Source: a virus
Lineage: Duplodnaviria > Heunggongvirae > Uroviricota > Caudoviricetes
Reading direction: 5' to 3' (one strand)
Virus record (IMG/VR): IMGVR_UViG_2695420732_000023
DNA: 39,472 bases
Part shown: piece after piece, positions 8,553-14,512 of the stretch
Numbering within the stretch: position 1 is the first letter of the stretch
How the letters are laid out: the number at the start of each line of letters is the position of its first letter
Notes under the pieces: generated by a model
Seen by the model: only the letters and a program-made list of their open reading frames with translations
Told to the model about the DNA's origin: nothing
Database searches by the model: none
Translations under genes and position numbers: made by a program

Positions 8553-9483
8553 ATTAACCGGCTATGTATGGGATGGTTGCGCAGCGTCAGGCATGAAATT
8601 ATCCAGCGTGGCAATTATGGCACGCCTGGCTGATTTCAGTAATGACGAAGGTGTGTGCTGGCCATCAATTGAAACCATTGCCCGCCAGATTGGCGCGGGG
8701 ATGAGTACCGTCAGAACGGCTATCGCACGGCTGGAAGCAGAAGGCTGGTTAACGCGTAAGGCGCGTCGCCAGGGTAACCGCAATGCGTCGAATGTTTATC
8801 AGCTTAACGTTGCGAAGCTTCAGGCTGCGGCTTTTTCTCAACTGTCAGATTCTGACCCGTCAAAATCTGACGCATCAAAATCTGACCCGTCAAAATTTGA
8901 TGCGTCGAAATCTGGCAAAAAAGCGGGTTTTCACCCGTCAGAATCTGGCGGGGATCCGTCAGTAAAATCAAAACATGATCCGTCAGATAAAAAAACTTCT
9001 CGTCCGGACGCTTCGCAACCGGACACGCGGAAGGCTGAACAGGATTTTTTAACTCGCCATCCTGATGCGGTTGTATTCAGCCCTAAAAAGCGCCAGTGGG
9101 GGACGCAGGATGATTTGACCTGCGCACAGTGGCTCTGGAAAAAAATCATCGCCCTGTACGAGCATGCCGCCGAATGTGACGGCGAGGTGGTTCGTCCCAA
9201 AGAACCGAACTGGACAGCCTGGGCAAACGAAATTCGCCTAATGTGTGTGCAGGATGGTCGTACTCATAAACAAATCTGCGAGATGTACAGCCGCGTCAGC
9301 CGCGATCCGTTCTGGTGCCGTAACGTGCTCAGCCCGTCGAAGCTGCGGGAAAAATGGGATGAGCTTTCCCTGCGCTTATCGCCGTCCGTCAGCACGTACA
9401 CCGAAAAACGCGAAGACCCGTACTTCAAAGCCAGTTACGACAACGTGGACTACAGCCAGATCCCGGCAGGATTCAGGGGGTGA
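8542..9483 (+). CDS. phage replication initiation protein (HTH N-terminal domain, O-like; contains iterons)
   Basis: 313-aa ORF after the immunity region; N-terminal winged-helix-like region; internal low-complexity PSKSDASKSD segment encoded by DNA direct repeats (iterons). Confidence 0.65.
   Translation: MSTKLTGYVWDGCAASGMKLSSVAIMARLADFSNDEGVCWPSIETIARQIGAGMSTVRTAIARLEAEGWLTRKARRQGNRNASNVYQLNVAKLQAAAFSQLSDSDPSKSDASKSDPSKFDASKSGKKAGFHPSESGGDPSVKSKHDPSDKKTSRPDASQPDTRKAEQDFLTRHPDAVVFSPKKRQWGTQDDLTCAQWLWKKIIALYEHAAECDGEVVRPKEPNWTAWANEIRLMCVQDGRTHKQICEMYSRVSRDPFWCRNVLSPSKLREKWDELSLRLSPSVSTYTEKREDPYFKASYDNVDYSQIPAGFRG
8845..8995. repeat. iteron-like direct repeats (CCGTCARAATCTG, at least 5 copies) followed by A-rich tract; candidate phage ori
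   Basis: copies seen at about 8847, 8868, 8887, 8934 and 8956, with looser copies near 8980; A-run at 8989-8996. Confidence 0.5.
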
Positions 9484-9485
9484 TC

Positions 9486-9974
9486 ATGAGTCTGTTAAAT
9501 GACGTTCAGAAATTCATTGAAGCCCATCCGGGGTGTACTTCCGGAGACATTGCGGATGCTTTTACAGGTTACTCACGGCAGCGCGTTCTGCAGTCAGCAA
9601 GCAAGTTACGTCAGAGTGGGCGTGTGGCTCACCGTTGTGAAGGAGATACACGCAGACATTTCCCGCGCCTGACTGAGAGAGCGCAGGAACCGGAACCACA
9701 ACCAGTTCGTGAAACCAGACCTGTGCGCAATTTCTATGTCGGCACTAACGATCCCCGTGTGATTTTGTGCCTGACCCGCCAGGCGGAAGAACTGGAGTCC
9801 AGGGGCTTATACCGTCGTGCTGCAACCGTGTGGATGGCGGCATTCCGTGAAAGCCACTCCCAGCCAGAACGAAACAATTTTCTGGCGCGTCGTGAGCGGT
9901 GCTTACGGAAAAGCAGCAAGCGCGCTGCATCGGGTGAAGAGTGGTATCTGTCAGGGAATTACGTGGGGGCTTAA
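9486..9974 (+). CDS. PerC/Pch-family transcriptional regulator-like protein
   Basis: segment AEELESRGLYRRAATVWMAAF resembles PerC-family motif by recall; ATG with GGGGG RBS; stop overlaps next start (TAATG). Confidence 0.45.
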   Translation: MSLLNDVQKFIEAHPGCTSGDIADAFTGYSRQRVLQSASKLRQSGRVAHRCEGDTRRHFPRLTERAQEPEPQPVRETRPVRNFYVGTNDPRVILCLTRQAEELESRGLYRRAATVWMAAFRESHSQPERNNFLARRERCLRKSSKRAASGEEWYLSGNYVGA

Positions 9975-10627
9975 TGAGTAATAAATATTGCCAGGCGCTG
10001 GTGGAACTGCGGAACAAACCAGCCCATGAACTGAAGGAAGTGGGCGATCAGTGGCGCACGCCGGACAACATTTTCTGGGGAATTAACACCCTGTTTGGCC
10101 CGTTTGTTCTGGATCTGTTCACTGACGGTGATAACGCCAAATGTGCCGCGTATTACACGGCGGAAGACAACGCGCTGGCGCATGACTGGTCAGAACGTCT
10201 TGCGGAGCTTAAAGGTGCTGCCTTTGGTAATCCCCCATACAGCCGCGCCAGTCAGCATGAGGGGCAATACATCACCGGCATGCGTTACATCATGAAACAT
10301 GCCAGTGCCATGCGTGATAAGGGCGGGCGCTATGTTTTCCTGATCAAAGCTGCCACCAGCGAAGTGTGGTGGCCGGAAGATGCAGATCATATTGCTTTTA
10401 TTCGCGGGCGTATTGGTTTTGAACTGCCTGTCTGGTTTATCCCGAAAGACGAGAAGCAGGTACCGACAGGAGCTTTTTTCGCTGGTGCTATTGCTGTTTT
10501 TGACAAGACCTGGAAGGGACCGGCAATCAGCTACATCGGGCGCGATGAACTTGAGGCATGTGGTGAGGCGTTTCTGGCGCAGGTTCGCCAGCAGGCGGAA
10601 AAACTGGTCAGGGAGATGGCGGCATGA
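9974..10627 (+). CDS. phage DNA N6-adenine methyltransferase (Dam-like)
   Basis: start MSNKYCQALVELRN...DQWRTPDNIF and catalytic FGNPPYS (NPPY) motif typical of phage Dam MTases. Confidence 0.8.
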   Translation: MSNKYCQALVELRNKPAHELKEVGDQWRTPDNIFWGINTLFGPFVLDLFTDGDNAKCAAYYTAEDNALAHDWSERLAELKGAAFGNPPYSRASQHEGQYITGMRYIMKHASAMRDKGGRYVFLIKAATSEVWWPEDADHIAFIRGRIGFELPVWFIPKDEKQVPTGAFFAGAIAVFDKTWKGPAISYIGRDELEACGEAFLAQVRQQAEKLVREMAA

Positions 10628-10950
10628 CGACGTTAACTCAATGCCAGCAGCAGGTGCTGGATATGCTGATTTCTTATCAGAAAGAACGTGGTTTCCCGCC
10701 AACCAATCAGGAGGTGGCAACCATGCTGGGATACCGTTCAGTGAATGCAGCGGTGGAGCATCTTCGCGCACTGGAGAAAAAAGGTGTCATCACGATAAAG
10801 CGTGGCGTGGCCCGGGGGATAACGCTTCATACCGCGGTGAAGGACGACGACAGCGAGGCGGTCGGGATTATCCGCTCACTGCTTGCTGGTGAGGAAAACG
10901 CAAGGCTGCGTGCAACCCACTGGTTACATGAGAGAGGCCTGAAAGCATGA
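10624..10950 (+). CDS. LexA N-terminal DNA-binding-domain-like protein (no peptidase domain)
   Basis: 108-aa ORF; QQQVLDMLISYQKERGFPPTNQEVATMLGYRSVNAAVEHLRALEKKGVI resembles LexA winged-helix domain; overlapping start/stop with neighbours. Confidence 0.5.
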   Translation: MTTLTQCQQQVLDMLISYQKERGFPPTNQEVATMLGYRSVNAAVEHLRALEKKGVITIKRGVARGITLHTAVKDDDSEAVGIIRSLLAGEENARLRATHWLHERGLKA

Positions 10951-11336
10951 AGCTGATCCTGCCTTTTCCGCCCAGCGTGAACACGTACTGGCGACACCCC
11001 AACAAAGGGGCGTTTGCAGGTAAGAGCCTGATAAGCGCGGCGGGGCGAAAATTCCAGAGCGCGGCGTGCGCAGCAATAGTTGAGCAGTTACGTCGTCTGC
11101 CGAAACCAATGTCGACACCTTCTGCAGTGGAGATCGTGTTGTTTCCTCCGGATAACCGGATCCGCGATCTGGACAACTATAACAAGGCGCTGTTTGACGC
11201 CCTGACCCACGCGGGTGTGTGGGAAGACGACAGTCAGGTGAAAAGAATGCTGGTTGAGTGGGGACCGGTTATCCCGAAAGGGAAGGTCGAGATCACTATC
11301 AGTAAGTTCGAGAAAACGGCGGGTGCAGCCGCCTGA
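10947..11336 (+). CDS. rusA: RusA-family Holliday junction resolvase
   Basis: 129-aa; LPFPPSVNTYWRH ... DLDNYNKALFDALTHAGVWEDDSQV matches RusA signature by recall. Confidence 0.85.
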   Translation: MKLILPFPPSVNTYWRHPNKGAFAGKSLISAAGRKFQSAACAAIVEQLRRLPKPMSTPSAVEIVLFPPDNRIRDLDNYNKALFDALTHAGVWEDDSQVKRMLVEWGPVIPKGKVEITISKFEKTAGAAA

Positions 11337-13150: not shown

Positions 13151-13167
13151 TTTTGTGGAGAAATTTG

Positions 13168-13533
13168 ATGCGTGATATTCAGATCATCCTTGAACGTTGG
13201 GGGGCATGGGCAGCTAGTGATAGCTCAGGAGTGGACTATTCGCCTATAGCTGCTGGGTTTAAGGGACTTCTTCCCTATACCAGTAAGGCACGCCAAGCTT
13301 GTTCAGATAATGATGCGCTAATTATTGAAAGTTGCTTGGAGCAACTAAAAAAAAGAAAACCTTATGAGCATTCTCTACTGGTTGCGCATTATTTGTACGG
13401 GTTTTCAAAGCGGAAGATTGCCAAAGTACAAGGAAAGGATGAGAAATTAATCCGTATAGAAATATTGTTAGCAGAGGGATTCATTGATGGTTGCCTTTCT
13501 ACTCTCGATATTCATTTAGATATGGAGTTATAA
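13168..13533 (+). CDS. late-gene antiterminator Q (QuuD-like small Q family)
   Basis: MRDIQIILERWGAWAA...IAAGFKGLL...LDIHLDMEL resembles DLP12 QuuD by recall; GGAG RBS 7 nt upstream of ATG at 13168; position before lysis genes. Confidence 0.7.
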   Translation: MRDIQIILERWGAWAASDSSGVDYSPIAAGFKGLLPYTSKARQACSDNDALIIESCLEQLKKRKPYEHSLLVAHYLYGFSKRKIAKVQGKDEKLIRIEILLAEGFIDGCLSTLDIHLDMEL

Positions 13534-13572: not shown

Positions 13573-14388
13573 TTATTTCTTTTTTTTATTACTTTCAGAT
13601 AATCGTCGGTTTAATGTGTATTTTATTTGGTTCCTAATCATTTTTTCAGGAATGTCATATTTGTCTAAGAATGATATTATTTCATCCTCGTCAAGCAATC
13701 CATTCTTTATAATTTCATCTATCTGTTTTTGTAGATACCAAACATCCTTCTGTTCTACAGGAGTTAAATTCATATGGCTATTTATGGAGTTGATAGTAGC
13801 ATCACGTTCAAGAACTCTAATCCTTTGATTTAATGAACGAGTGTTTTGTAATATTTCAGATAAAAGATCTTGTTCAGTACGTGGTTTTACTTCTTCAGTT
13901 GGAGGGTATTGATCTAAAGCTCGTTTAAAATTTTTTTCAAATTGCTCCCAGTATGTATTAAAAACTTGCTTTAGAATACGGTCATCTAAAGATTTATCGA
14001 CAAGACAATTGTTTATTGTCCTTACTAATTCCCAAACACTCTCTTTATTTGGCGTTGTGTGATTGAATTGAGCAAGTGGATCTTTTAAATCTTCTGGTTT
14101 TAAGTCAATCAAGAATGTACAAACTTTATTTGTTGAAAGTCCTTTTGCTAGTGCTCCTGTTTCAAACAAAATCCATGGTTTATTTTTATTTTCTTGTGTC
14201 AAACATACAATGCCGACAGATACATCTTTTAATTTATCATTAATTTCAGAGAACCATATAGCGCCACGATCAATATCTCTGGTTGAAATCCATGGCTGCG
14301 AAGCTTGGATAACACACTTCAGCCAGTCGCTAATAAGTTCTGCAACAGCTTGACTTCTTTGCCCAGACCAACTTATGAACACTTTCAT
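13573..14388 (-). CDS. TIR-like domain protein (N-terminal TIR-like fold, C-terminal domain of unknown function); candidate antiphage defence moron
   Basis: start MKVFISWSGQRSQAVAELISDWL (FISWSG motif typical of bacterial TIR-like domains), later WILFETGAL with candidate catalytic Glu; visibly AT-rich versus flanks; opposite strand to all neighbouring late genes; GGAG RBS. Confidence 0.65.
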   Translation of the reverse strand: MKVFISWSGQRSQAVAELISDWLKCVIQASQPWISTRDIDRGAIWFSEINDKLKDVSVGIVCLTQENKNKPWILFETGALAKGLSTNKVCTFLIDLKPEDLKDPLAQFNHTTPNKESVWELVRTINNCLVDKSLDDRILKQVFNTYWEQFEKNFKRALDQYPPTEEVKPRTEQDLLSEILQNTRSLNQRIRVLERDATINSINSHMNLTPVEQKDVWYLQKQIDEIIKNGLLDEDEIISFLDKYDIPEKMIRNQIKYTLNRRLSESNKKKK

Positions 14389-14512
14389 TATGTACTCCAT
14401 GTAATCACTCAAAAGGGACTGAAATTTACATTAAAAATTAAATAAAATCACTCACGCGGTCCGCAGAAACCATTGTAATCTGTTATGAGTGGTTACTTCG
14501 CCACACAACTTA

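Follow-up and report, generated by a model that had tools for sequence, protein, structure and literature searches.

A LexA DNA-binding-domain protein without protease domain encoded next to rusA in lambdoid prophages: a possible RecA-insensitive binder of SOS-box-type operators

The stretch of DNA analysed here in full, referred to as the window (39,472 nucleotides; IMG/VR virus record IMGVR_UViG_2695420732_000023), is a lambdoid prophage of the SfII/SfV type that encodes, in its rightward gene run, a 108-residue protein made of a LexA-type winged helix-turn-helix and a conserved helical tail, with the protease domain of LexA absent. The gene overlaps both of its neighbours, behaves as an optional cassette in related prophages, and is tightly linked to the Holliday-junction resolvase gene rusA. 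The reading that we prefer, to which we give a probability of about 0.4, is that the product may act as a RecA-insensitive binder of SOS-box-type operators, made during lytic growth. The gene itself is no novelty, since it is already catalogued and thousands of genomes carry an annotated copy; what is added here is the conserved tail, the near-invariance of the contact residues, the optional-cassette behaviour, and the linkage with rusA. The features on which the argument draws are collected in Table 1.

Table 1. Positions of the features discussed in the text, in coordinates of the window; residue numbers refer to the 108-aa protein.
Feature	Position	Strand	Basis
tRNA-Thr(CGT), adjoining the prophage	1369-1444		
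Integrase gene	1459-2622		
cI-like repressor gene (XRE+S24)	6598-7290	-	
Perfect 20-bp SOS box TACTGTTTTTATATACAGTA within the cI-like gene	7062-7081		PSSM score 27
cro-like gene (a CII-like gene is also found in the immunity region)	7388-7648		
PerC-family gene (yfdN-like), directly upstream of Dam	9480-9974	+	PF06069 E=7.8e-09
Dam (N6-adenine methyltransferase) gene	9941-10627	+	PF05869 E=1.1e-45; RefSeq homologue starts at the equivalent of 9974
LexA-like gene, 108 aa, ATG start	10624-10950	+	ORF, PF01726, PHROG 362, WP_000210169.1
Winged helix-turn-helix, residues 1-68	10624-10827	+	AlphaFold models, Foldseek to 3JSO
Residues 39-52, start of the recognition helix region, SVNAAVEHLRALEK (E. 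coli LexA: SPNAAEEHLKALAR)	10738-10779	+	Alignments
Two-helix hairpin tail, residues 75-103, where LexA has the S24 domain; candidate dimerisation module	10846-10932	+	AlphaFold, conservation
rusA (Holliday-junction resolvase)	10947-11336	+	PF05866 E=5.5e-15
Q antiterminator gene	13153-13533		PF06530 E=9.6e-49

Domain Identity and Absence of the Protease Domain

A preliminary description of this DNA, made without database searches, had reported a 108-aa open reading frame resembling the LexA N-terminal winged helix and lacking an S24 peptidase domain. The reading frame is present exactly as reported, and Pfam PF01726, TIGR00498, phmmer, the structure 3JSO, and BLASTP agree on its domain content. 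The profile search that had been proposed as a check matched the LexA DNA-binding domain, PF01726 (LexA_DNA_bind), with residues 1-65 aligned to profile positions 1-65 of 65 at E=2.9e-19 and 69 bits, the Pfam cut-off being 23.7 bits. Moreover, BLASTP aligned the protein to residues 1-86 of E. coli LexA with 43% identity over 90 residues, and LexA chains of the PDB were matched by phmmer at E ~1e-15; the LexA-domain match is far beyond chance. Two AlphaFold models, one with 7 sequences (mean pLDDT 78) and the other with 47 (mean pLDDT 83), have identical topology, with helices at residues 6-22, 28-35, and 40-52 and wing strands at 56-58 and 66-68, and the first of them superposes in Foldseek on the LexA-DNA complex 3JSO with an rmsd of 1.3 Å over 68 residues at 50% identity.

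With respect to the protease, no match to the S24 domain PF00717 was obtained with Pfam in the 108-aa protein, and the neighbouring cI gene matches this domain at 6e-19. In TIGR00498, which describes full-length LexA, only positions 1-91 of 203 are matched, with 70.8 bits, under the cut-off of 110.95, and the protein stops short of where LexA has its catalytic Ser119 and Lys156. Since there is no S24 domain, RecA-stimulated self-cleavage is impossible for the LexA-like protein, which, lacking a defining domain, falls outside the LexA repressor family proper.

DNA-Reading Residues

The DNA-binding residues of E. coli LexA include five in helix 3, Ser39, Asn41, Ala42, Glu44, and Glu45, and substitutions at positions 41, 42, 44, and 45 are found in cyanobacterial LexA proteins (PMC13416735). 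The protein encoded here carries S39, N41, A42, V44, and E45. Among 24 non-redundant family members, reaching down to 38% identity, S39, N41, and the wing residues R64-G65-I66 are kept in all 24, A42 in 21, and E45 in 15, with Asp in another 4. None of the 24 has E44, which is replaced by Ala, Val, or Phe, and the residue corresponding to LexA Arg28 is Asn, Gln, or Val across the family. Most of the LexA reading head, not all of it, is kept, in a form that fits a CTGT-type half-site with a possibly shifted preference; the DNA specificity may have shifted because Glu44 and Arg28 are replaced in the family.

Helical Tail and Origin of the Protein

In the AlphaFold models, the tail consists of helices 75-88 and 93-103, with a pLDDT of ~87, and the preceding linker (~70-75) is of low confidence. 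This hairpin is also present in 40-50% identical relatives from Cronobacter, Kosakonia, Enterobacter, and Citrobacter, and A97, L101, and G105 are nearly invariant in the family alignment. Moreover, pN is well below pS in the LexA-like gene for both the LexA domain and the tail. Because the tail is kept in relatives and pN is below pS, it is taken as a selected part of the protein and not as read-through. Other winged-helix regulators dimerise via C-terminal helices and, by analogy, the hairpin would probably take over the dimerisation role of the S24 domain in LexA. The hydrophobic moment of the two tail helices shows no significant excess over shuffles.

As for the origin of the protein, its alignment with LexA extends past the hinge in both phmmer and BLASTP, placing Ala88-Gly89 opposite the LexA cleavage site Ala84-Gly85, and this reach to the cleavage-site position suggests descent from a truncated lexA. 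Distant relatives do not keep the Ala-Gly pair, the segment that contains it is predicted to be helical, and there is no catalytic domain in the 108-aa protein.

Operon Setting and Cassette Behaviour

The rightward run of the prophage comprises a replication gene followed by the PerC-like, Dam, LexA-like, RusA, KilA-N, DUF968, and Q genes. The ATG of the LexA-like gene overlaps the Dam stop codon (ATGA at 10624-10627), its own stop codon overlaps the rusA ATG (ATGA at 10947-10950), and a Shine-Dalgarno sequence, GGGAGA, stands upstream of the start; by this arrangement, the gene is translationally coupled to both neighbours. Between 8542 and 13533 there is no intergenic space for an operator, and no promoter-like site was found upstream of the LexA-like gene on the plus strand from 8500 to 10624. 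Having no promoter of its own, the gene would, on this anatomy, be a member of the early right operon, with a product made after derepression or on infection and not in the lysogen.

Distant relatives show the corresponding order: (PerC-like), (methyltransferase), LexA-like, RusA, (KilA-N or Rha/ANT), DUF968, and Q. The LexA-like gene adjoins rusA in 73 of 80 RusA-anchored loci, and does so in distant relatives as well; among the 73 RusA-anchored loci with enough upstream sequence, it abuts rusA in 69. Carriers of a nearly identical LexA-like gene span at least four unrelated cI types. In three IMG/VR prophages (L104, L113, and L145), Dam is joined straight to rusA with the same four-base overlap and no LexA-like gene between them, and Dam is itself optional, being missing in phage Ayreon (L005, 36405-37219) and in several loci. 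Thus, Dam and the LexA-like gene are independent cassettes set between the PerC-like gene and rusA, and, as each junction is the same four-base ATGA overlap, either can be missing with the coupling left intact.

Several neighbouring genes deserve mention in their own right. Just upstream of the LexA-like gene, distant relatives carry DNA methyltransferase genes (L171, 6130-6789; L173, 5826-7004; L175, 6125-6991) that belong to non-homologous families, namely MT-A70 (PF05063), long Dam (PF05869), and D12 (PF02086). Every relative that was inspected has the PerC-family gene in the same place; in pathogenic E. coli, proteins of the PerC type are known to activate virulence genes. The accessory slot between Q and the lysis genes is occupied by a TIR-domain gene (13573-14412, minus strand), which matches PADLOC TIR-TM (PDLC03016) at E=1.4e-57 and Pfam TIR_2 at 4.1e-07 and is likely a prophage-borne anti-phage defence gene.

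At the other end of the prophage, a 417-aa aldehyde-dehydrogenase-family (proA-like) gene lies upstream of tRNA-Thr(CGT), within positions 1-1444 of the window. The prophage of STEC388, with a 100% identical LexA-like gene, sits at icd and not at tRNA-Thr(CGT), so the early region is common to prophages with different integration modules.

SOS Boxes and Candidate Targets

The window was scanned with an SOS PSSM based on 21 literature SOS boxes of E. coli. Against the score of the box inside the cI-like gene (27), the next best site in the window reaches 8.8 and the best of 50 shuffles 17.1, so that no other site in the window is a strong one of the LexA type. The box falls in the part of the gene that encodes the repressor's linker, between its HTH and S24 domains, and it is kept in all 80 of the IMG/VR loci with the same cI allele. 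In cI alleles with just 68-70% DNA identity (E. coli L172, position 3069; Cronobacter L173 and L174, position ~3190), the arms TACTGT and ACAGTA are unchanged and only the central spacer differs, whereas the linker around the box is rewritten and encoded residues change as well (Tyr to Cys, Lys to Ile). Fixed arms amid diverged flanks and residues are the mark of constraint on the DNA and not on the encoded peptide. No consensus promoter was found near the box on either strand between 6400 and 7700, nor an internal start that would explain it, the downstream in-frame Met92 not being conserved in diverged alleles. Literature searches returned no paper on a cI-internal SOS box.

The cI box was considered as a dedicated target of the LexA-like protein and rejected, since, in the RusA-anchored loci, the gene is present in 30 of the 32 with the box and in 39 of the 41 without it (Fisher p=1). 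From the side of cI, the box is kept and the LexA-like gene absent in 7 of 60 cI-anchored loci. Operators with a non-LexA spacing were also rejected in the window, where CTGT-Nk-ACAG with k=0-20 occurs at shuffle level and half-site hexamers are not enriched.

Related phages carry further boxes. Downstream of Q, a DNA methyltransferase gene of the late region has a second recurrent strong SOS box, TACTGTAAAAATAAACAGTG, across its codons 3-9; this box is found in SfV (L003, 34170-34189), in Ayreon (L005, 41489), and in 31 of 86 loci with the LexA-like gene, at a distance of +3.9 to +7.2 kb, and both this box and its methyltransferase gene are absent from the present window. Its position suggests that the late-region methyltransferase gene may be under LexA control. 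More strong SOS boxes occur upstream of dinI-like genes in related phages, and, by the boxes found, host LexA is woven into these prophages.

The preliminary description had also offered the prophage's own operators as a possible target, a proposal that fits poorly with the occurrence of the same near-identical gene beside at least four unrelated cI types and with its linkage to rusA. These operators are an unlikely target because the gene travels with rusA and not with the immunity region; in addition, the OR region of the prophage contains TTGCG-type repeats and no CTGT half-sites. Being nearly identical across immunities, the protein cannot be adjusted to each set of operators, and its target must be one that all carriers share, either host SOS boxes or something in the conserved nin-like module.

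Family and Distribution

At a threshold of at least 90% identity, the 327-bp gene is found intact in 2233 of 5426 complete E. coli genomes (41%). RefSeq names its product "LexA family transcriptional regulator" or "LexA family protein", and WP_000210169.1 is a 100% identical copy. The gene was found in 50 phage records, including mEp460, in which it is annotated as "LexA DNA binding domain protein", SfV (orf42), SfII, Ayreon, the Stx1 phage Lys8385Vzw, and fifteen Stx2c phages. Residues 1-107 of the protein match positions 1-105 of the 106 in the profile of PHROG 362 at E=1.5e-59; the members of this group have ~106 aa, and its label, "transcriptional repressor", is a predicted annotation. A search of 1.8 billion representative proteins, together with a second profile search, recovered relatives of only 38-50% identity and 106-118 aa, all of them in Enterobacterales (Cronobacter, Kosakonia, Enterobacter, Leclercia, Citrobacter, Salmonella, Pantoea, and Buttiauxella) and all with the C-terminal extension. 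In a structure search of viral proteins (BFVD), many further phage LexA-domain-only proteins of 65-152 aa were recovered. PADLOC returned only a weak, irrelevant match for the 108-aa protein. Full-text literature searches returned no experimental study of the LexA-like family regarding binding, expression, or phenotype.

Proposed Function and Alternative Explanations

In the preferred explanation, in which DNA specificity, dimerisation, repression, and a benefit to the phage are inferred, the gene would be transcribed within the early right operon, from cro to Q, so that its product would appear only after derepression or infection. The winged helix retains the LexA residues that read the CTGT half-site, and the LexA-like protein could then occupy SOS-box-type operators when host LexA is cleaved. 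Its targets would be host SOS promoters together with the prophage SOS boxes at cI and accessory genes, and an uncleavable, phage-made stand-in for LexA may damp or reshape the SOS programme during lytic growth. The isolated N-terminal domain of LexA is reported to keep some SOS-box binding and repression, for which reason cells must clear this fragment with ClpXP to complete SOS induction (PMC10584840). This activity of the free domain supports the feasibility of an SOS-box binder of the kind proposed.

The invariance or near-invariance of S39, N41, and A42, the frequent retention of E45, and the fact that host SOS boxes are common to all carriers appear to support the SOS-box reading, as do the top-scoring SOS boxes that these prophages carry. 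On the other side, the replacement of Glu44 and Arg28 would speak against it, and the tectiviral protein gp6, described below, evolved another site and the role of an activator. Moreover, the gene is dispensable, as the natural Dam-rusA junctions show, and it has no link with the cI box, which also counts against an SOS-box function.

A more far-reaching form of the same proposal is doubtful, although it deserves to be spelled out. The gene is present in some 40% of E. coli strains, among them strains with Stx2c or Stx1 phages. There, the mimic would re-occupy the SOS operators vacated by LexA and shut off or reshape the SOS response in lytic growth. Competitors would be affected too, in that their LexA-controlled genes, for instance colicin operons, SOS-induced defence genes, and the antirepressors of co-resident prophages, would be silenced, and the tail would represent a new dimerisation module for a LexA-type domain. 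SOS signalling drives the induction of Shiga-toxin phages and the release of toxin. If the protein does occupy SOS boxes, many lysogens of E. coli and Shigella, those of Shiga-toxin phages included, would have a phage-side brake on SOS, with a bearing on the competition between co-resident prophages. Natural prophages that differ by the LexA-like cassette alone already exist.

The main rival to an SOS-box binder is a retuned regulator of the gp6 type, that is, a captured LexA fold adapted to a site of the phage's own, probably in the conserved PerC-to-Q module or at an accessory gene, from which phage genes would be activated or repressed with the host SOS regulon left untouched. We regard it as rather unlikely, though it is the strongest of the alternatives. 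Its precedent is gp6 of GIL01, a truncated LexA homologue with its own site that activates late genes (PMC6182141); positions 44 and 28 depart from LexA in the whole family, and the tight linkage with rusA and the nin-like module is as expected of a regulator with a nearby target. However, S39 and N41 are invariant and A42 nearly so, in contrast to the retuned helix of gp6, and late activation is already provided by the Q antiterminator. Moreover, the gene run up to Q offers no intergenic operator space, and no CTGT/ACAG palindrome with a spacing of 0-20 is enriched in the window except the canonical box.

It is improbable that the protein is a DNA-binding accessory of recombination or replication, directing or restraining, for example, RusA or the methyltransferase. 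The position of the gene directly upstream of rusA, with translational coupling, would suit such a role, as would the usual presence upstream of a DNA adenine methyltransferase, drawn from three Pfam families (PF05869, PF05063, and PF02086). Nevertheless, no partner is obligatory, given that rusA occurs without the LexA-like gene and the LexA-like gene without the methyltransferase; in its fold and its conserved residues, the protein corresponds to a binder of specific operator sequences, and no precedent was found. Finally, a functionless, decaying remnant of a captured lexA riding along with rusA is very improbable, since, despite the dispensability of the gene, its clean absence from some prophages, the LexA alignment running through the hinge to the Ala-Gly position, as expected of a truncated lexA, and many frameshifted database copies, relatives of 38-50% identity from several genera keep the length, the tail, and the key residues, domain and tail alike have a pN well below pS, and the gene is intact in 41% of complete E. 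coli genomes.

Comparison with Known Systems

The LexA-like protein shares with E. coli LexA (3JSO, 1LEA) the residues Ser39, Asn41, Ala42, and Glu45, the wing Arg64-Gly65-Ile66, and a predicted fold that superposes at 1.3 Å. LexA itself represses SOS genes as a dimer on CTGT-N8-ACAG operators. Unlike LexA, the LexA-like protein has no S24 domain, no Ser119/Lys156, and no LexA dimer interface, and a 30-residue helical hairpin takes the place of the S24 domain; Glu44 and Arg28 are replaced, and the gene is situated in a prophage operon and not at the lexA locus. The LexA fragment 1-84 and LexA(Ind-) mutants resemble it in being LexA DNA-binding domains unresponsive to RecA. However, the LexA fragment is transient and removed by ClpXP, whereas the phage protein is the product of a dedicated gene with an added conserved tail.

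Among phage LexA-domain proteins, only gp6 of GIL01, a tectivirus of Bacillus thuringiensis, has been characterised. It is 44% identical to the LexA domain of its host, recognises GaCACAnnTGTGaC at the P3 promoter's -35 element, and switches on late genes (PMC6182141). Like the LexA-like protein, gp6 is a phage-encoded, truncated LexA homologue that consists mainly of the DNA-binding domain, is encoded in an early operon, and lacks the cleavage domain. It differs in ending soon after the wing, with no helical tail, and in having a changed recognition helix in which Lys38 is critical. In addition, gp6 recognises a non-LexA palindrome and activates a late promoter, whereas the LexA contacts are largely kept in the protein described here and late control belongs to Q. 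The two also differ in phage type and host phylum, and gp6 (Q5ILC6) is compared here by its published description. In BFVD, a "LexA DNA binding domain" protein of Tectiviridae is matched at E=7e-3 with 30% identity.

On its sequence, the LexA-like protein can be assigned to PHROG 362 and to the known kind of phage-encoded LexA-domain-only proteins. Structural matches of this kind in BFVD come from uncultured Caudovirales, Tectiviridae, and the Mycobacterium phage Wildcat. Most of the LexA-domain-only proteins in BFVD are bare domains of 65-85 aa, whereas the tail and the linkage with rusA are specific to the lambdoid family of Enterobacterales.
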